This document shows positions 2,511 through 59,112 of a stretch of 64,000 bases of DNA, one piece after another (position 1 is the stretch's first letter; every line of letters begins with the position of its first letter). The notes beneath the pieces were generated by a model. That model ran no database searches. It was not told where the DNA came from and saw only the letters and a program-made list of their open reading frames with translations. The translations under genes were made by a program, and so were the position numbers. The stretch is from Alphaproteobacteria bacterium (GTDB lineage: Bacteria > Pseudomonadota > Alphaproteobacteria > RF32 > CAG-239), in NCBI GenBank assembly GCA_017471705.1, contig JAFUSH010000023.1, forward strand, positions 2,649 through 66,648, in the 5' to 3' direction.

Positions 2511-3074
2511 ATGAAACAACTCGCAGGTGCTATCAGAATCGGTTGGGTTATTGAATACAAAGGCAAACCTTGGACTATTACTAAAGCTGTTCATATTAAA
2601 CCGGGTAAAGGCGGTGCTTTTATGCAAGTGGAAATGAAAGAAGTTGAAGCCGGAACCAAAACCAATGAACGTTTCAGAACTGAAGATACGGTTGAAAAAT
2701 TAATGGTAGAAGACAGAGATTGTCAATTTTTGTTTGAAGATTCCACTGGTTTGACCTTTATGGAAAACGACACCTTTGAACAATTTTCTATGCCGTCCGA
2801 TATTTTGGGAGATTCTCGTCCGTTCTTGACCGACGGTATGCAAGTTCGTGTTTCATACATTGACGGCAGACCTATTTCGGTTGATTTACCGTTGCAGGTA
2901 ATTTGCGAAGTAGTTGAAACCGAGCCTGCTCTTAAAGGACAAACGGTTTCTTCCTCGTATAAACCGGCTATTTTGGATAATGGTGTTCGCACTACCGTTC
3001 CGCCGTTTATCAACGTTGGTGATAAAATCGTGGTCGGCACTTCCGAAGCTAACTATGTAGAAAGAGCAAAATAA
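2511..3074 (+). CDS. efp: elongation factor P
   Basis: 187 aa; the KPGKGGAFMQVEMK loop and overall EF-P-like sequence; AGGAG Shine-Dalgarno upstream. Confidence 0.95.
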   Translation: MKQLAGAIRIGWVIEYKGKPWTITKAVHIKPGKGGAFMQVEMKEVEAGTKTNERFRTEDTVEKLMVEDRDCQFLFEDSTGLTFMENDTFEQFSMPSDILGDSRPFLTDGMQVRVSYIDGRPISVDLPLQVICEVVETEPALKGQTVSSSYKPAILDNGVRTTVPPFINVGDKIVVGTSEANYVERAK

Positions 3075-4319: not shown

Positions 4320-5387
4320 ATGACAGCTCCTTTAATGCCGAAAGCCACGGCTGTTTGGCTCGTTGAAAACACGGCTCTTACTTTTCGCCAAATTTCCAAA
4401 TTCTGCGAAATACACGAATTAGAAATTCAAGCAATCGCCGACGGTGATATTGCTTTTAATATTGTAGGCAGAAATCCTATTCACAATGGTTTGCTCTCTT
4501 GGGAAGAAATTCACCGTTGCGAGGCAGACCCTGCGACCGACTTGGTGGCAAACGTTTTGGAGAACAACGTCAAAGAACGCAATGCCAAGGCAAAGAAGAT
4601 TTTATCGCCGACTCAGCGCAGTGAAAAACCTTTTGCAATTTTATGGATTTTGAAAAATTGTCCGGAAATTATGGATTCGCAAATTTGCAAACTTATCGGC
4701 ACAACTAAACCGACTATCAACAAAATTCGTAACGGAGAATATGATACGGAAACAGAGTTAAAACCGAAAAATCCGGTGACCATCGGTCTATGTGATGAAA
4801 AAGATTTGGAAAATGCTCTGGCAATTTCCAAAATTCACAATCAACCGAAAAAGAAAAAGACAAAAGCTAAAAAGAAAATGACTAAAACAGCTACCGTAAA
4901 GAAAACTGCTAAAGATAAAACCAAGAAAACCACTGCTAAGAAAGCAGTTAAAGCTACTGCCAAAAAAACAGCAACCGTAAAAAAGACAGCAGCAAAAAAA
5001 GCTCCGGCTAAAAAAGCTGTTGCCAAGAAAACTACGGCCAAGAAAGCAGTTAAGGCTACTGCAAAAAAAGCGGCAACCGTAAAAAAGACGGCGGCAAAAA
5101 AGGCTCCGGCTAAAAAGGCTGTTGCCAAGAAAACCACTGCTAAGAAAGCAGTTAAGGCTACTGCCAAAAAAACAGCAACCGTAAAAAAGACGGCGGCAAA
5201 AAAAGCTCCGGCTAAAAAAGCTGTTGCCAAGAAAACCGCGGCTAAGAAAGCAGTTAAAGATACTGCCAAAAAAACAGCAACCGTAAAAAAGACAGCGGCA
5301 AAAAAAGCTCCGGCTAAAAAAGCTGTTGCCAAGAAAACTACGGCTAAGAAAGCAGTTAAGGCTACTGCCAAAAAAACGGCAAAATAA
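4320..5387 (+). CDS. DUF1013-family protein fused to a Lys/Ala-rich histone-H1-like repeat tail
   Basis: N-terminus [40 protein letters not shown] matches my recollection of alphaproteobacterial DUF1013. The C-terminal ~190 aa are AKKA/KKTA repeats. Confidence 0.85.
4927..5387 (+). repeat. about 4.5 tandem copies of a 102-bp (34-aa) repeat, [34 protein letters not shown]
   Basis: The period was measured between identical gc(t/c)aagaaagcagttaa(a/g)gc strings at about 4933 and 5035, and the pattern recurs to the stop codon. Confidence 0.9.
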
Positions 5388-11569: not shown

Positions 11570-12058
11570 ATGAAATTAAATTTATGTTTTGGCATTATAT
11601 CCGTTGTTTTATATGCTTTATCCGTTCAAGCCGAAACGGTTAGAGTAGCCGACGGCGATTCGCTTGAAATAGGAGAACGCCGCATTCGCTTAGACGGTAT
11701 AGATGCTCCGGAATTTACCCAAATCTGCCAAACATCGGACGGAAAAAATTATAACTGCGGCATAGAGGCTTTGCATTATTTGGAAAGTCTGACAGCCGGC
11801 AAAGATATAAATTGCCGTTGTTTGCCGGAAAAAGACCGTTATCATCGGGAACTTTGCGAATGTTTTGCCGATAATTTATCTTTAAACAAAGCAATGACGG
11901 AAGCCGGTTGGGCGGTAGCTTACCGTGATAAAACCTACTTGCCGGCAGAAAAAAGCGCAAAACAAAATAAACGGGGAATTTGGCAAGGAAAAAATATGCG
12001 TCCGGCGATATACCGCATTTTGCACGAGGCAGAACAACAAACTAAAACTGCTCCTTAA
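11570..12058 (+). CDS. thermonuclease (staphylococcal nuclease-like) family protein
   Basis: Signal peptide followed by VRVADGDSLEIGERRIRLDGIDAPE, which resembles the SNase motif. ATG 11570 preferred over GTG 11561. Confidence 0.7.
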   Translation: MKLNLCFGIISVVLYALSVQAETVRVADGDSLEIGERRIRLDGIDAPEFTQICQTSDGKNYNCGIEALHYLESLTAGKDINCRCLPEKDRYHRELCECFADNLSLNKAMTEAGWAVAYRDKTYLPAEKSAKQNKRGIWQGKNMRPAIYRILHEAEQQTKTAP

Positions 12059-13283
12059 TCCATTCGGAAATATCCGGATTTTTATTTAAGGCAAACACTT
12101 CATTTAAATAAGCATCCACCAGAATTTTACGCGCCTCATCTTCACTTATCCCCCGCGCTTGCATATAAAAAATCTGCTCTTTATCCAAATCTCCGCTTGA
12201 AGCTCCGTGCGAACATTTCACATCATCGGCAAAAACTTCCAATTCCGGCTTACAGTCAATTTCCGCGCCGTCATTCAAAAGCAATGCGCGGTGAAGCTGA
12301 TGACCTTCGCATTGCTGAGCGTCGGGAGCAATATGAATCTGCCCTTGAAACACCCCTTTAGCCCGAACCTTTGCCACTCCTTTAACCAACTGATTCGAAT
12401 ACGTGTGCGGAGACAAATGGCGGATATTAGTGGTTATATCGCAAACCTGTTCCGTTTCGCTTAATTTATAAACTCCGTTGATTTCTGCCGCAGCACCGCT
12501 TTGCAGCAAACGGACATAACTTTCGTAACGTGAAAATTTACAGGTTCCGTTAGCGCAAAATGCCGAATAATTTCCGCCTGATTTAACCTGAACGCTGTTC
12601 AGAGATATATGATGAGCTGATTTTGCCTCGTTCTGCCAAACATAATGATTCAGTTCGGCATTATTGCCGACAAATATTTCATTAACGACATTTTGCGTAT
12701 ATACGGCATTTTCCTCCGCGCAAAAATGTTCAATTACCGTTGCTTTTGCCCCGTTTTCCGCAACTACCGTATTGCGTATATTGCATAAACGATTTTTGTC
12801 GGCTGAATTATGATACTTAATATATAATGGTTCCGATAAAACCGTTCCGCGTTCTATCAGTATGAATAAACCCTGCTCCAGATAGGCGCCGTTTAAAGCC
12901 GCAAACGGAAAGTCATCCGGATTGAATGACTTATTCAGATAAGATTTTATATCTCCGTCGTAAACAGCTTCGATTAAAGATTTAATCACCACACCATTCG
13001 GCAAATTCCAATCTTCAATATGTAATTTTCCGTTGCAATACCTTATCTGCAGAGCATTAAACGGCAATTTATCATTGCTGTGACAGTGACCTTCGCATTT
13101 TATAGGTTCGTTGTCAATTACGGGATTTTGCATATCATCTTGTTTAAAATACGAAAATCGCCAATCTTCGGTTTTAGAATCGGGCAAACCTCTTTTTTCA
13201 AAAGAAATCCGATTTTTTTCGCGCAGACCGCTTAAATAAGGAATGTCATCGCCCCACAGATTTATGTTTTGCAGCAAACTCAT
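12042..13283 (-). CDS. sufD: Fe-S cluster assembly protein SufD
   Basis: 413 aa; the C-terminal part (LLLNDGAEIDCKPELEVFADDVKCSHGASSGDLDKEQIFYMQARGI) is SufB/D-like; directly follows sufC. Confidence 0.9.
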   Translation of the reverse strand: MSLLQNINLWGDDIPYLSGLREKNRISFEKRGLPDSKTEDWRFSYFKQDDMQNPVIDNEPIKCEGHCHSNDKLPFNALQIRYCNGKLHIEDWNLPNGVVIKSLIEAVYDGDIKSYLNKSFNPDDFPFAALNGAYLEQGLFILIERGTVLSEPLYIKYHNSADKNRLCNIRNTVVAENGAKATVIEHFCAEENAVYTQNVVNEIFVGNNAELNHYVWQNEAKSAHHISLNSVQVKSGGNYSAFCANGTCKFSRYESYVRLLQSGAAAEINGVYKLSETEQVCDITTNIRHLSPHTYSNQLVKGVAKVRAKGVFQGQIHIAPDAQQCEGHQLHRALLLNDGAEIDCKPELEVFADDVKCSHGASSGDLDKEQIFYMQARGISEDEARKILVDAYLNEVFALNKNPDISEWIKEQF

Positions 13284-13286
13284 ATC

Positions 13287-14048
13287 TCATTCTTCCAAGT
13301 AATTTTTATAACCGTTTGCCTCCAAATCTTCGGCCAGTTGCATTGAGCCGGACTTAACTATATGACCGTCCGCATAAATATGAACAAAATCCGGTCTGAT
13401 ATAATTCAGCAAATCTAAATGATGAGTGATGATGAGCAACGCATTATTCTGATTATGCCATTTATTAACGCCCTCAGCCACCGTGCGTAAAGCATCAATA
13501 TCCAAACCGGAATCCGCTTCGTCCAGAATTGCCAACTTTGGTTGCAGCAAACTCAGTTGCAGAATCTCCAAACGCTTTTTTTCGCCGCCGGAAAAGCCGA
13601 CATTTATCTCGCGCTTTAACATTTCCGAGCTTATGTTAAATTCCTTTGCCGCACCGCGTATAAGCTTTAAAAATTCCGCAGCGTCAAGTTCCGGCAAACC
13701 TTTATATTTGCGCTGAGCATTTATTGCGTGTTTTAAAAAATTGTTAGTGGTAACTCCGGTAATTGCCACCGGATATTGCATACTTAAAAACAAACCTTCG
13801 CAAGCGCGTTCATTAGGGGCAAGCCGTAACAAATCTTTATCGTTAAAAAACACTTCTCCCGATGTAACTTCATAATCAGGCTTACCGGTCAAAACGTAAG
13901 AAAGCGTAGATTTTCCGGCACCGTTCGGCCCCATTACGGCGTGAATTTCTCCGGCTTTAATTTCTAAATTCAGACCTTTAATAATTTCCTTTTCATCTTC
14001 AGCTATGCCGGCATATAAATTCTTTATTTGCAACAAAACATCTGACAT
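13287..14048 (-). CDS. sufC: Fe-S cluster assembly ATPase SufC
   Basis: 253 aa; Walker A GPNGAGKST, ABC signature FSGGEKKR, Walker B LAILDEADSGLD. Confidence 0.95.
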   Translation of the reverse strand: MSDVLLQIKNLYAGIAEDEKEIIKGLNLEIKAGEIHAVMGPNGAGKSTLSYVLTGKPDYEVTSGEVFFNDKDLLRLAPNERACEGLFLSMQYPVAITGVTTNNFLKHAINAQRKYKGLPELDAAEFLKLIRGAAKEFNISSEMLKREINVGFSGGEKKRLEILQLSLLQPKLAILDEADSGLDIDALRTVAEGVNKWHNQNNALLIITHHLDLLNYIRPDFVHIYADGHIVKSGSMQLAEDLEANGYKNYLEE

Positions 14049-14345
14049 TTATTTTTCCTTTTTTTCCCATTCATCCAAACGCTTGGCAATCATTTTTAAC
14101 TTTTCCGCCTTATACTCATTGACCTGCTTTTCTATATCATAGCAATATTTGAGTTGACCGAGCATAATTTCCACATCGGCGGTTTCTTCGATAATTTCCG
14201 CAACATTATCTTTTTTACGATTAACATTTTTGAGTATTTCCTTAATCAATTCGCTCATTTCCTCAATAACCTGCAGCATTTGCGGCTCTTTACCCCAAAC
14301 TCTGATTGTGCGTTCATACAATTTCTGCTCATCTATATCACTCAT
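14049..14345 (-). CDS. MazG-like nucleotide pyrophosphohydrolase domain protein (98 aa)
   Basis: EEMSELIKE ... EETADVEIML resembles the EExxE...ExxD all-alpha NTP-PPase pattern. Its stop abuts the sufC start. Confidence 0.6.
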   Translation of the reverse strand: MSDIDEQKLYERTIRVWGKEPQMLQVIEEMSELIKEILKNVNRKKDNVAEIIEETADVEIMLGQLKYCYDIEKQVNEYKAEKLKMIAKRLDEWEKKEK

Positions 14346-14450
14346 CCTACGTTTCCTCCCCAGACATCATTCTGAACCCCGAATTTATGACGATGTCAAC
14401 ATTCATCCTACGCTTCCTTCCCAGACGTCATTCTGAACCCCGAATTTATG
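14342..14450. repeat. two tandem 61-bp-period repeats carrying copies of the sufB 3' end / RBS-ATGA junction plus an element end
   Basis: The string tcatcctacg(t/c)ttcct(c/t)cccagac(a/g)tcattctgaaccccgaatttatg occurs at 14342..14389 and 14403..14450. Confidence 0.9.
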
Positions 14451-14814
14451 TGAGGGGGGAAGAATCCAGTTCTAATATTCAAAACAAATCCCAATATAAA
14501 TCACTCCATTCTTTATTATCTGATTCTATCAATTTAATTTTTCTTTCTCGTCTCCAGCCTTTTAAGATTTTTTCTCGTTTAATAGCTTCTGTTATATCAT
14601 CAAAAATTTCATAGTAAACCAACATTTTAACATTATATTTCTTAGTAAATCCCTCGTATAATTCCATTTTATGTTCATACACTCTCTTAGTCAAATTTGA
14701 AGTTACACCCACATAAAGAGTACCGTTTCGTCTACTTGCCAATATATAAACATATCCCGCCATTTACATCTCTTTTATTTTATGGATTCTTCGGGCAAAT
14801 GCCCTCAGAATGAC
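14427..14814 (-). mobile_element. small GIY-YIG gene cassette bounded by imperfect terminal inverted repeats
   Basis: Left end is GTCATTCTGAaccccgaatttatgtgaggggGGAAGAATCC (14427..14467). Right end is GGATTCTTCgggcaaatgcccTCAGAATGAC (14784..14814). Flanked by a direct repeat aacattcatcc(t/c)acgcttccttcc at 14398..14421 and 14821..14844. Confidence 0.65.
14479..14763 (-). CDS. GIY-YIG nuclease family protein (94 aa, COG2827-like)
   Basis: YVYILASRRNGTLYVGVTSNLTKRVYEHK is a GIY-YIG signature. Confidence 0.9.
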   Translation of the reverse strand: MAGYVYILASRRNGTLYVGVTSNLTKRVYEHKMELYEGFTKKYNVKMLVYYEIFDDITEAIKREKILKGWRRERKIKLIESDNKEWSDLYWDLF

Positions 14815-14825
14815 AATATTAACAT

Positions 14826-16271
14826 TCATCCCACGCTTCCTTCCAAGCTTATATTTATCAATTTAGCAGCTTCTATGGCAAATTCCATCGGCAATTTTTG
14901 CATAACTTCTTTGCAAAATCCGTTTACAATCAATCCCACCGCTTCTTCGGCGCTTAAACCGCGTTGCATACAGTAAAACAATTGCTCTTCGCTAATTTTG
15001 GAAGTTGTCGCCTCGTGTTCCAAAATCGCTGATTTGTTACGATTTCTGATATACGGAACCGTATGCGAACCGCAGGTCGAACCTATAAGCAAACTGTCGC
15101 ACTGCGAATAGTTACGCGCCTTATCGGCATTTGAAGCAACATCTACCAAACCGCGGTATGTCTGGTTGGAAAATCCGGCGGAAATACCTTTGGATATTAT
15201 TTTAGAACGGGTATTTTTACCCAAATGAACCATTTTTGTGCCGGTATCGGCCTGTTGTTTATTATTGGTTATCGCCACCGAATAAAATTCGCCCGACGAA
15301 TTATCGCCTTGCAACACACAAGACGGATATTTCCAAGTTACCGCCGAACCGGTTTCCACTTGCGTCCACGAAATTTTAGAATTAACACCTCGGCAAACCG
15401 CTCGTTTGGTCACAAAATTGTAAACCCCGCCTTTACCGTCCTTATCCCCCGGATACCAATTCTGCACTGTCGAATATTTAACTTCGGCATTATTCATAAC
15501 CACAATCTCGACGATTGCCGCGTGAAGCTGATTTTCATCTCGCTGCGGTGCCGTGCAGCCTTCTAAATAAGAAACATAACTGTCATCTTCCGCCACAATC
15601 AAAGTGCGCTCGAACTGTCCGGTATTTTTGGCATTAATCCGGAAATAAGTGGAAAGCTCCAAAGGAGATTTTACACCTTTTGGAATATACACAAAAGACC
15701 CGTCGGTAAACACTGCCGAGTTAAGACAGGCGTAAAAATTATCGGTATACGGCACCACCGAACCCAAATATTTCTGCACCAAGTCAGGATGCTTCTGCAC
15801 AGCCTCCGATATAGAGCAGAATATAATTCCCTGCTCTGCCAATTTTGCGCGATAGGTAGTTGCCACCGAAACACTGTCAAACACGGCATCAACCGCAACC
15901 ACACCGGCAAGAGCTTCCTGTTCTTTAAGAGGTATCCCCAATTTATTGTAAGTTTCAAGCAAATTTTTATCTACTTCTTCAAGACTTTTCGGTTTAACTT
16001 TTTGCACCGGTGCCGAATAATAGCGCAAAGCCTGAAAATCAACCTCATCATACTTAAGCTTTGCCCAATGCGGCTCACTCATCGTTAACCAATGGCGATA
16101 TGCTTTTAAACGCCTGTCCAACAACCATTGAGGTTCATTTTTCTTGGCTGAAATCAAGCGGATAATATCTTCATTTAAGCCGCAAGGAGCCGCATCGGAT
16201 TCGATATCGGTCACAAATCCGTATTTATACTTATCACCGCTGAAATCTGCTATTTGAGGTTTTTCCGCCAT
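14826..16271 (-). CDS. sufB: Fe-S cluster assembly protein SufB
   Basis: 481 aa; typical SufB sequence ending ...ISLEGSVG. Confidence 0.95.
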
Positions 16272-16358: not shown

Positions 16359-16583
16359 TTATTTAATTATTACATTAACCTTTTTACCGTAAAAATCCAT
16401 AAGCTTACGCAAAGAATCATATTCCATAAATTTACCGAGTTCCATCCCATCGATGATTTTGCTCGGAATACCCGTGCTTGAGGCAACATTATTTATGTAT
16501 AAATGTTTTTCGTGACGAGCCTGCCATAATGCCTGCCCGATTTCTGATTTTGTTTGTGCATCAAATAAATAACTTTTTACCAT
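16359..16583 (-). CDS. small XRE-type helix-turn-helix protein (74 aa), paralogue of 58706..58930
   Basis: IGQALWQARHEKHLYINNVASSTGIPSKIIDGMELGK fits an HTH_XRE pattern. It is 67/74 identical to the second copy. SD is GGGAG. Confidence 0.8.
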   Translation of the reverse strand: MVKSYLFDAQTKSEIGQALWQARHEKHLYINNVASSTGIPSKIIDGMELGKFMEYDSLRKLMDFYGKKVNVIIK

Positions 16584-16606
16584 AGTTTTAAACTCCCTGA
16601 TTTGTT

Positions 16607-16765
16607 AAATAAAACAAAAACCACCTCAAATCTCTTCAAGGTGGGGAGTTCACAACTGTCGCATAAGCAGTCTTGCTTATTCAATATATTCAGCAAGCTC
16701 CCCGTTATGAGGAGTTATTTTATACGAGGAGCTGTGACACTCCGCAGACGACCTCTCGCCTGCAG
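16607..16765 (-). ncRNA. candidate ~160-nt structured RNA (sRNA or leader) with its own promoter and intrinsic terminator, copy 1
   Basis: Minus strand runs GCAGGCGAGAGGUCGUCUGC...GGGGAGCUUGCU-GAAUAUAUUGAAUA-AGCAAG...CUCCCC. It ends in a 10-bp stem CCACCUUGAA-GAGA-UUUGAGGUGG followed by UUUUUGUUUU. It is conserved with compensatory changes at 58954..59112. Confidence 0.6.
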
Positions 16766-21028: not shown

Positions 21029-21407
21029 GCAAGATTGGGATAATTTAAGCGAACAACAATGGGAAGAGTTGTGCGACCGTTGCGGCAAATGCTGTCTGGT
21101 AAGCCTGCAGGATATTGATAGCGGCGAGATATATCATACCAATATTTTGTGCCGCTACTATGACATTGAAAACAAACTTTGCACCGTCTATGACAAACGC
21201 TGTCAATTAGTGCCGAACTGCCTTAAGCTTGATAAAAACAATGTCGACAAACTGCCTTTTATGCCCAAAACCTGCGCATATCGTGCCTTGTTTGATAAAA
21301 ATTTCAAACCGCAGCCGTTAAAAAGTTTACAAGGACGCGTTGTGAGCGAAACCGATATTGATGAAACCGATTTGGAAAGCTATATTGTAGATTGGGACGA
21401 TATATAA
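21021..21407 (+). CDS. YcgN/UPF0260-like Cys-rich protein, short paralogue
   Basis: 128 aa; WEELCDRCGKCCL ... PKTCAYRAL ... YIVDWDDI parallels the downstream YcgN homologue. The GTG start overlaps the dnaB stop. Confidence 0.7.
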   Translation: MAEQDWDNLSEQQWEELCDRCGKCCLVSLQDIDSGEIYHTNILCRYYDIENKLCTVYDKRCQLVPNCLKLDKNNVDKLPFMPKTCAYRALFDKNFKPQPLKSLQGRVVSETDIDETDLESYIVDWDDI

Positions 21408-21907
21408 TGGCTTACGAAGATTTGCAAGAAGAATACAATCCGCAGGAAAGAGTTGATGAGTTTTCAAAATTAGAACCGCAATTTTGGAAACATAAAAAGC
21501 TTGAGCAAATGAGCAAAGCCGAATGGGAGGCGCTTTGCGACGGTTGCGGTAAATGCTGTTTGAATAAAATAGAAATTAAAGGCAAAGTGCATTTTACCAA
21601 TGCTTATTGCCGATTTCTGGATTGCAAAAGCTGTTTGTGCAAAATTTATAACCATCGCTTTGAGGTAGTAAAAGACTGCCGAGATATCAACCTCGAAGCC
21701 GTCAGAGAAAAGCCGCGTTGGCTACCTAAAACTTGCGCTTACTGGCTTTTGGATAACGGATACGATTTACCGACTTGGCATCCGCTCATAACCAAACGGG
21801 CGGCAAGTGTGCAAGAGGCACAGATGTCCTTAAGAGGACGCGAACTGATTAATGAAACAAAGGTTAAAGACTATGAAGATTACATTGTTGACTGGCAAGA
21901 CCTTTGA
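21392..21907 (+). CDS. ycgN: YcgN/UPF0260 family protein
   Basis: 171 aa; FWKHKKLEQMSKAEWEALCDGCGKCCLNK...LPKTCAYWLL...LPTWHPL closely resembles my recollection of E. coli YcgN. Confidence 0.8.
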   Translation: MGRYIMAYEDLQEEYNPQERVDEFSKLEPQFWKHKKLEQMSKAEWEALCDGCGKCCLNKIEIKGKVHFTNAYCRFLDCKSCLCKIYNHRFEVVKDCRDINLEAVREKPRWLPKTCAYWLLDNGYDLPTWHPLITKRAASVQEAQMSLRGRELINETKVKDYEDYIVDWQDL

Positions 21908-58667: not shown

Positions 58668-58696
58668 GAAAGCCGGATTCTTCAATCCGGCTTTTA
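58668..58696. terminator. bidirectional terminator between the hdeD-like gene and HTH copy 2
   Basis: aaAGCCGGATTcttcAATCCGGCTttt. Confidence 0.65.
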
Positions 58697-58705
58697 TTCT
58701 GTAAA

Positions 58706-58930
58706 TTAATCAATAATTACTTTCACCTGTTTACCGTAAAAGTCCATAAGTTTACGCAAAGAACCGTATTTCATAAATTTGCCGAGTTCCATACCATCAA
58801 TGATTTTGCTTGGAACACCGGTGCTTGAGGCAACATTATTTATGTACAAATGTTTTTCGTGACGAGCCTGCCATAATGCCTGCCCGATTTCTGATTTTGT
58901 TTGTTTATCAAATAAATAGCTTTTTACCAT
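58706..58930 (-). CDS. small XRE-type helix-turn-helix protein (74 aa), paralogue of 16359..16583
   Basis: 67/74 residues identical to copy 1; same SD and same start context. Confidence 0.8.
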   Translation of the reverse strand: MVKSYLFDKQTKSEIGQALWQARHEKHLYINNVASSTGVPSKIIDGMELGKFMKYGSLRKLMDFYGKQVKVIID

Positions 58931-58953
58931 AGTTTCAAACTCCCTGATTTGTT

Positions 58954-59112
58954 AAATAAAACAAAAACCACCTCAAATCTCTTCAAGGTGGGGAGTTCGT
59001 AACTGCCAGTGAACAGTCCGATGTATTCAATATATTCCATCAGCTCCCCATTAGAGGAGTTAATTTTCACCGGTGGAGCTACGACACTCCGCAGACAACC
59101 TCTCGCCTGCAA
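58954..59112 (-). ncRNA. candidate ~160-nt structured RNA, copy 2
   Basis: Same architecture as 16607..16765. Stem CUGAUG/CAUCGG replaces CUUGCU/AGCAAG around the identical loop GAAUAUAUUGAAUA, and the terminator hairpin is identical. Confidence 0.6.

Follow-up and report, generated by a model that had tools for sequence, protein, structure and literature searches.

The stretch of DNA analysed here (the window) comprises 64,000 nucleotides (nt) from an Alphaproteobacteria bacterium, an uncultured inhabitant of gut or rumen (GenBank assembly GCA_017471705.1, contig JAFUSH010000023.1, positions 2,649 to 66,648 of the forward strand). It contains an iron-sulfur (suf) operon in which the gene for a small GIY-YIG nuclease, flanked by two hairpin motifs, is located directly downstream of sufB. 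Coordinates are those of the window, and the genes of the suf locus as well as the features described below are read on the minus strand unless noted otherwise. The gene order is sufB (16271..14826), an open reading frame (ORF) of 94 amino acids (aa; 14763..14479), an ORF of 98 aa (14345..14049), sufC (14048..13287) and sufD (13283..12042). sufB (481 aa) is intact.

The sufB junction and its Ssn cassette

The junction between sufB and its downstream neighbour is present three times. The 19-mer GGAAGGAAGCGTGGGATGA is found without mismatch at junction copy 1 (A1, 14826..14844), with one mismatch at copy 2 (A2, GGAAGGAAGCGTAGGATGA, 14403..14421) and with three at copy 3 (A3, GGGAGGAAACGTAGGATGA, 14342..14360), while shuffled sequences are expected to contain none. 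The start-to-start spacings are 423 and 61 nt. A1 encodes the last five codons of sufB, EGSVG, and the TGA stop; its overlapping ATG is the former start codon of the 98 aa gene. A2 likewise reads EGSVG-stop, and A3 reads GGNVG-stop. The ATG of A3 opens the 98 aa gene, which also receives its ribosome-binding site (now GGAGG) from this copy. An identical 540-nt stretch is present in all five contigs examined, one sample each, of which one originates from ENA (MEGAHIT-style) and four are Logan assemblies. Since two assembly sources agree, the arrangement is not an assembly artefact. A first-pass annotation, made from the letters of the window, had described this triplication, a middle copy still encoding EGSVG-stop and a 94 aa GIY-YIG gene between copies 1 and 2, and all three are confirmed. 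Its further claims, an insertion precisely at the overlap of the sufB stop and the downstream start and two neighbours left intact, are supported, the downstream gene owning a junction copy with a strengthened GGAGG.

Between A1 and A2, a left spacer (ATGTTAATATT, 14815..14825) separates the sufB stop from the left hairpin motif (GTCATTCTGAGGGCATTTGCCCGAAGAATCC, 14784..14814), which has the cleavable orientation on the gene strand. The 94 aa gene (14479..14763) follows, and after it the right hairpin motif (GTCATTCTGAACCCCGAATTTATGTGAGGGGGGAAGAATCC, 14427..14467, plus strand), which is inverted with respect to the left one. A right spacer, GTCTG (14422..14426), lies between the right motif and A2; from the geometry published for the family (PMC11893778), a bottom-strand cut is predicted about 1 nt from its edge. 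Two short ORFs bridge the gaps on the minus strand. One starts at the ATG of A1 (14764-14829, 21 codons) and its TAA abuts the ATG of the nuclease gene; the other starts at the ATG of A2 (14347-14406, 19 codons) and its TAG ends 1 nt before the ATG of the 98 aa gene. They may be translational coupling bridges. Both are not conserved in the related loci L016, L019 and L107.

The 94 aa protein matches the Pfam family GIY-YIG over residues 3-75 (E 8.9e-17) and has no further domain. NCBIfam yielded only one sub-threshold match, to a group I intron endonuclease (21 bits vs. a cutoff of 56), and neither a search of PDB sequences nor a scan of viral contigs found relatives. In total, 5376 homologs of the protein were found. 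A 43-sequence alignment has 21 invariant positions, all of which the window protein, as its first row, has by construction. The ratio of nonsynonymous to synonymous substitution rates of the gene (0.07-0.13 vs. relatives) indicates strong purifying selection.

Proteins of this size and architecture constitute the Ssn family (single-domain GIY-YIG proteins of about 94 aa, CDD cd10448), described in 2025 as the first site-specific endonucleases that act only on single-stranded DNA (ssDNA), with thousands of homologs that have flanking hairpins of their own (Chenal et al., Nat Commun 2025, PMC11893778). Characterised Ssn enzymes require an oriented hairpin motif and cleave ssDNA a few nt to its 5' side; double-stranded DNA (dsDNA) is neither bound nor cut. 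The general form of the motif is termed SRM, and its form in Neisseria, CGTCATTCCCGCGMAVGCGGGAATCYRG, NTS. SsnA of Neisseria meningitidis cuts 3 nt 5' of CGTCAT, i.e. 4 nt from GTCAT, in a non-conserved flank, and 42% of the Ssn homologs have motifs on both sides (PMC11893778). Judged by sequence, the cassette in the window is a member of the Ssn system: It combines an ssnA-like GIY-YIG gene with two inverted copies of the hairpin motif, which are considered cognate by analogy.

Several observations on the motifs underlie this assignment. The gene is flanked on both sides by oriented motifs in inverted arrangement (14784-14814, minus; 14427-14467, plus), for which zero cases are expected by chance. 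Exact 10-nt inverted arms bracket it, GTCATTCTGA at 14427-36 and 14805-14 and GAAGAATCCA at 14459-68 and 14783-92, and a search with the composite pattern GTCATTCTGA-N(8-35)-GAAGAATCC yields two matches in the window and zero in shuffles. The motifs are a variant of SRM, GTCATYCTGA-hairpin-GAAGRATCC, with the GTCAT head and the GAATCC tail of SRM/NTS and a longer stem. Among the 80 closest homologs, which come from species-representative genomes of many phyla and share 56-68% identity with the window protein, NTS-type motifs matching the published pattern (e.g. TGTCATTCCCGCGAAGGCGGGAATCCAG) are found at 42 loci vs. 1.7 in shuffles, and some nearly match the Neisseria NTS. The commonest layout at these loci is that of the window, with a plus motif 30-60 nt upstream and a minus motif 3-20 nt downstream. 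This means, the inverted repeats recur at other GIY-YIG loci, since the same type of hairpin flanks related genes at many of them. The terminal inverted repeats of the first-pass annotation are thus real, with exact arms, yet they are not the ends of a new type of element, being SRM/NTS-type motifs of the Ssn family (PMC11893778).

GAAGAATCC itself is present seven times in the window vs. 0.48 expected. Five of these sites lie outside the cassette (3187, 18828, 26794, 56774 and 58675, all on the minus strand). They were considered as element ends together with sites that match GTCATTCTGA with one mismatch, and were rejected as unrelated coding or terminator sequences, the site at 58675 being a terminator-like hairpin.

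The second unit, between A2 and A3, contains a 42-nt miniature (14361..14402) without a gene. In it, an 11-nt left spacer (ATGTTGACATC) and GTCAT are joined to the final 21 nt of the right motif, after which the 5-nt spacer GTCTG follows. Its first 16 nt (ATGTTGACATCGTCAT) match the left end of the element at 13 of 16 positions and its last 26 nt the right end at 25 of 26. By these matches, the miniature is a copy of the element that has lost its interior and retained both parental termini. The first-pass annotation had rightly considered the unit a gene-less derivative of the element, but had assigned it one element end instead of two. A simple tandem duplication was rejected as origin of the 61-nt unit because the 16 nt fit the left end of the element (13/16) and neither the expectation for a tandem copy (4/13) nor the downstream gene. 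Apart from the suf locus of this species, neither the window nor the 195 fetched loci contained a miniature, and the relatives L016-L019 and L107 are devoid of one. The 61-nt unit might have originated from a second insertion, of a miniature element into the same target, or from an unequal exchange between junction repeats, after which the interior was deleted at a CAT microhomology.

Empty sites and other occupied junctions

Loci of related gut Alphaproteobacteria (L numbers) were fetched via homologs of the 98 aa protein and of ssnA. An insertion at the end of sufB predicts an empty site in the suf operons of close relatives, and such a site was found: In the sister species L006-L015, neither a nuclease gene nor a hairpin is present at the junction between sufB and the 98 aa gene. 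The 98 aa protein of these species is 92-96% identical to that of the window, and sufB shares 85-88% nucleotide identity. Their junction is uninterrupted (...GGAAGGAAGCGTAGGATGAGTGA / ...TTGGAAGGAAGCGTAGGATGAGTGA...; empty-site sequence TTGGAAGGAAGCGTAGGATGAGTGATAT), both genes overlap by ATGA, and A2 of the window is the same 19-mer as at this empty site. Compared to it, the window has 484 extra nt between GGATGA and GTGATAT, which begin with the left spacer and correspond to 423 + 61 nt. The first unit consists of the 404-nt cassette (11-nt spacer, left motif, ssnA, right motif and 5-nt spacer) and the 19-nt A2, the second one of the 42-nt miniature and A3. A3 has become GGGAGGAAAC, which improves the Shine-Dalgarno sequence of the 98 aa gene, no longer coupled to sufB. 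From this comparison, the whole unit is concluded to have been inserted into the ATGA overlap of sufB and the 98 aa gene with duplication of 19 nt of the junction. Due to this duplication, the final codons and the stop of sufB are preserved, and the gene downstream still has an ATG and a ribosome-binding site.

Altogether, the suf site is empty in L006-L015 and L187-L189 and filled in the window, L016-L021, L107 and L190-L193. In L016-18, the cassette is located between sufB and the 98 aa gene with left motif and spacer as in the window and a junction repeat GGAAGYGTRGGATAG (15/17 in L016). L019-21 contain different motifs between sufB and a 96 aa gene; their repeat, TTGGAAGGAAGCGTCGGATAATGGA, is exact (25/25) and the boundary lies 3-5 nt further downstream. 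In L107, where the cassette separates sufB from its downstream gene, 14 of 15 nt are repeated. L190/191 have no 98 aa gene and the order sufB-ssnA-sufC, and here an exact 22-nt repeat (22/22) includes the ATG of sufC. In L192/193, the ssnA start overlaps the sufB stop, a hairpin doublet follows downstream and the repeat is weak. Outside this gut alphaproteobacterial clade, ssnA does not adjoin sufB in any of 160 loci.

A second type of junction is occupied in L022-26 and L194/195, where the cassette lies in a dnaB operon between two genes of a CxxCxxCC family; L024 has a repeat of 15/16 (TTGGGAGGAYTTATGA). The window contains the empty version of this site. Downstream of dnaB, two adjacent paralogous CxxCxxCC-family genes (21039-21907, plus strand), both ending in ...IVDW(D/E/Q)D(I/L), overlap by TAATG at the uninterrupted junction GATTGGGACGATATATAATGGCT (about 21395-21412, plus strand). 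Occupancy is reciprocal: In the window, the suf site is filled and the dnaB site empty, whereas contig k141_1185066 has a cassette at the dnaB site (L024) and none at the suf site (L188). The alternative sites that the cassette occupies in these two related genomes are thus separated by about 30 kb.

In summary, inverted motifs combined with junction repeats of 19, 25, 22 and 16 nt are found at four site variants (window, L019, L190 and L024). The flank-repeat scores of the window (21) and L019 (25) exceed a cross-locus null of at most 16. At each recurrent locus, the duplicated sequence is that of the local junction, which argues that the duplication was made at insertion and not brought by the element. 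An element carrying a fixed sufB tail was rejected for the same reason: The dnaB and sufB/sufC sites duplicate their own local junctions. The boundaries differ in L019, in L190 and at the dnaB site, which points to three or more separate insertions.

Within this bacterial clade, the ssnA genes form a single monophyletic group, in which those at the dnaB site are nested among those at the suf site. The sufB tree places empty sites within groups of filled ones. The window and L016/L017 have in common the spacer, a near-identical left motif and a GTG in the left vs. a GTA in the right junction copy, and between the window and L016, ssnA (83% nucleotide identity) has diverged as much as the flanking genes (82-83%). 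On these grounds, both cassettes can be traced to one old insertion. A recent gain of the cassette from an L016-like donor by recombination was rejected, as sliding-window identity reveals no such tract beside the junction. If there was one old insertion, the most plausible history for L006/L012 and L011, whose branches lie closer to the window and whose sites are empty, is that the cassette was lost precisely via the flanking repeats; independent gains are the alternative.

Additional observations were made at the fetched loci. The operon of L190 ends with sufD, and 8 nt past the stop of this gene lies a solo hairpin motif (GTCATTCTGAGGGTTTTACCCGAAGAATCC, 4931-4960) whose flanks show no evident duplication. 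In three assemblies (L024/L025/L026, about 2986-3030), ssnA at the dnaB site has a 1-nt deletion by an A-run that puts its N-terminal MKKQPCIYILAS out of frame, and gene callers start it at an internal ATG (MYLYFSEQ...). It is either a pseudogene or a gene with an alternative start. L194/L195 have a second GIY-YIG gene (5067-5291, minus strand) about 2.3 kb downstream of the dnaB-site ssnA, which is cut by the end of the locus. In other phyla (L046, L097, L050, L063, L105), ssnA homologs lie within BIME-like arrays of alternating plus and minus motifs with a spacing of about 60-115 nt.

Insertion model and alternative explanations

The best explanation is that an Ssn cassette was inserted as a unit at the overlap of sufB and the 98 aa gene with duplication of the junction, a reading to which a probability of roughly three quarters is assigned and whose mechanism is inferred. 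The edges of the insertions provide clues to it. The right repeat begins 5-8 nt after ...ATGAC of the outward-facing motif, or 5-7 nt where the repeat is well preserved (window 5, L019 6, L190 7, L024 7, L107 about 7, L022 8). The left boundary is variable: It either precedes the left motif by 6-12 nt or coincides with the start codon of ssnA. The spacers beside the motifs are non-conserved, like the flank cut in Neisseria. The insertion point follows TGA in the window and ATGGA in L019; in L190, it follows the ATG of sufC. The targets are purine-rich and have TTGGRAGGA in common upstream of the stop/start overlap; among few independent sites, this likeness may simply reflect ribosome-binding sites.

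In the proposed mechanism, the two target strands would be broken with a stagger of 15-25 nt, and fill-in would turn the stagger into a long target duplication whose length varies. On the bottom strand, Ssn would cut ssDNA a few nt to the 5' side of the outward-facing hairpin and thereby define where the moved DNA ends on the right; the left end would be less fixed. Joining would be performed by host repair or replication, because a hydrolytic GIY-YIG nuclease cannot transfer strands. Later, the flanking direct repeats would permit precise loss, and this would explain why empty sites are found in between filled lineages. Insertions would be retained by selection only if they preserve both genes, so that the repeats would be visible here and not at SRM-flanked loci of other phyla. 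The inserted ssnA would ride on suf operon transcription; a scan for promoters and terminators within the cassette gave no signal above chance.

A more far-reaching proposal can be made only tentatively, with the odds against it. SRM-ssnA-SRM units might be autonomous mobile elements of a new mechanistic class, in which the nuclease defines the ends beside hairpins, the host pastes the released strand into coupled junctions (TTGGRAGGA...ATGA), 15-25-bp duplications keep both genes and the repeats allow scar-free excision.

A number of findings weigh against the insertion model. The cassette does not encode a strand-transfer enzyme, so that autonomous transposition is hypothetical: The GIY-YIG nuclease is its sole ORF, and a recognised transposase (DDE, HUH, serine or tyrosine) is missing. 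A classical transposase footprint would not be expected to vary in repeat length (here 15-25 nt) and left boundary as these insertions do, and the position of the Ssn cut is extrapolated from a distant homolog. The right motif folds weakly (z about 0). Of the GC hairpins that had been annotated at each end, the left one is therefore clear, as its motif folds into a two-tier ssDNA hairpin (-5.5 kcal/mol, z -1.9), and the right one is not. The published SRM pattern HGTCWYN(0-2)YYVSBRHN(0-5)WNVSBRGN(0-2)RNCYNB, which recognises the canonical NTS used as positive control, has no match in the window, L016, L019, L022 and L024, and a looser pattern was then used for the window motifs. Within the 64 kb, a single locus carries the motif, with one full copy and one miniature at the suf locus and no dispersed doublets. 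Furthermore, of 37 loci with a plus motif upstream and a minus motif downstream, none of the 33 outside the clade shows a flank duplication. A scan of 116 loci with masked motifs added only L024, which belongs to the same clade; other high scores in this family-wide search were due to unmasked hairpin variants or arrays. The junction signature could survive, or even arise, only where selection needs both copies.

Three other explanations have to be weighed. The gene could be a domesticated resident that arrived by one ancient event of illegitimate recombination and later underwent divergence, conversion, rearrangement and deletion, the 61-nt unit being a plain local duplication. This would account for an ssnA divergence that tracks the host (83% vs. 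82-83% for the flanks between the window and L016), for the strong purifying selection, for a single copy in 64 kb without a transposase and for the missing flank duplications in other phyla, and domestication together with a role in controlling transformation has been proposed for Ssn (PMC11893778). One event, however, would hardly yield the different boundaries of the window, L019 and L190 with exact 22-25-nt repeats. Moreover, a second operon junction duplicates its own local sequence, the sites are reciprocally occupied in two genomes and the 61-nt unit is no simple tandem copy (13/16 vs. 4/13), so that this history is quite unlikely. By analogy to REP/REPIN sequences, which was also raised in PMC11893778, the mobile unit might be the inverted hairpin doublet, with ssnA as a neighbouring enzyme gene comparable to a RAYT. 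Inverted doublets (SRM plus, about 30-40 nt, SRM minus) are indeed located downstream of ssnA in L024, L190, L192 and L194, the 42-nt unit of the window resembles a collapsed doublet, a solo motif follows sufD in L190 and motif arrays are present in other phyla. At the dnaB site and in L192, however, the junction repeats bracket ssnA together with the doublet and not the doublet alone, and dispersed doublets are absent from the 64-kb window. A doublet as the mobile unit is therefore considered unlikely.

The first-pass annotation had favoured a homing-type or site-specific selfish element that spares an essential operon. A non-disruptive selfish insertion is largely right, but classical homing is very improbable. 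A free-standing GIY-YIG homing endonuclease in the style of Seg or I-TevI would cut the empty dsDNA junction, and repair from the filled allele would copy the gene. This fits the presence/absence polymorphism at one precise site, the highly conserved sufB 3' end, which is filled in several lineages, and the weak match to a group I intron endonuclease (21 bits vs. 56) points in the same direction. Against homing, the 94 aa protein is a catalytic domain alone, without a DNA-binding module, and its close homologs fall into the Ssn clade with flanking SRMs, of which the tested members need the hairpin motif and neither bind nor cut dsDNA (PMC11893778). The empty site has no Ssn hairpin motif, and the same gene lineage is also found at the unrelated dnaB-operon junction. 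In addition, double-strand-break repair leaves no target duplication, whereas junction repeats of 15-25 nt flank the insertions. Thus, insertion of the whole cassette with duplication of the local junction remains the preferred explanation.

Neighbouring genes and comparison with known systems

The gene that lost its coupling to sufB encodes a conserved 4-helix protein of 98 aa without a Pfam or NCBIfam family. Its model is confident (pLDDT 92), the best fold matches in the PDB are weak (E 0.5-3) and comprise the pyrophosphohydrolases HisE, MazG, iMazG and YpjD, and the residues of a conserved EExxE...ExxD motif are invariant. The initial label MazG-like has no Pfam support, but is plausible from model, fold matches and motif; the gene appears to be a clade-specific small MazG-like gene between sufB and sufC. 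Upstream of sufB, a 408-bp module with a gene for a 74 aa helix-turn-helix-like protein (16359-16583, minus strand) is located, which is duplicated in the window (16359-16765 and 58706-59111; 88% nucleotide and 92% protein identity). The copy near sufB is absent in the sister species L006/L012, where the intergenic gap measures 62 bp, and looks like a second small insertion by the suf operon.

For the Ssn system, NTS-ssnA-NTS had been likened to an insertion sequence by the authors, no mobility was shown, and empty sites or target duplications were not reported; the word 'duplication' does not occur in the text (PMC11893778). Mobility of the gene-plus-hairpin unit and the spread of the hairpins were left as hypotheses. 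New compared to that study are a variant motif missed by the published pattern, pairs of empty and filled sites, junction duplications at at least three operon junctions and a miniature derivative. Taken together, the comparison supports insertion of the cassette as a unit and its precise loss, both of which had only been hypothesised (PMC11893778). They also suggest how a selfish or semi-domesticated gene can inhabit an essential iron-sulfur operon without polar damage, namely by copying the stop/start junction. The footprints, i.e. ends, target and expected product, are a basis for designing a mobility experiment.

The closest known relative is the Ssn/SRM system itself. Shared are the single-domain GIY-YIG protein of about 94 aa and inverted oriented GTCAT...GAATCC motifs on both sides, and close homologs of the window protein in other phyla carry canonical NTS motifs. 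In contrast, the stem of the window motifs (GTCATTCTGA...GAAGAATCC) is extended and two-tier or degenerate, outside the published pattern, and there is one locus per 64 kb instead of hundreds of copies. The window cassette also differs by its location inside an essential operon, the 19-nt junction duplication and the empty sites in sister species. The homing genes T4 Seg and I-TevI share the GIY-YIG fold, the location of a small selfish-looking gene between undisrupted conserved genes and the presence/absence polymorphism. The window gene differs from them in that it lacks a DNA-binding domain, has its own hairpins at both ends and a target duplication and belongs to an ssDNA-only family (PMC11893778).

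REP/BIME sequences and REPINs with RAYT (IS200/IS605-like HUH Y1) likewise combine an enzyme gene with inverted hairpin repeats on both sides that are recognised as ssDNA, which is assumed for the window by family analogy, and they also form gene-less doublets and arrays. The window enzyme, however, is a hydrolytic GIY-YIG nuclease and not an HUH tyrosine transposase, and movement of the IS200/IS605 type leaves no target duplication, in contrast to the 15-25 nt observed here. Casposons, integrated by Cas1, use a staggered attack at gene 3' ends with duplications of about 14-15 bp, and Penelope-like elements with a GIY-YIG endonuclease are target-primed retroelements with long or variable target duplications. 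A long duplication that spares a conserved gene 3' end resembles both, and its variable length suggests two separate nicks; unlike them, the window cassette has neither Cas1 nor a reverse transcriptase nor another integrase, its sole ORF being the 94 aa nuclease. Compared to integron cassettes, it lacks an integrase and an attI site, has hairpins on both sides and duplicates host sequence. It shares with them a promoterless ORF that would depend on upstream host transcription and imperfect inverted repeats that would act, like attC, as ssDNA hairpins.

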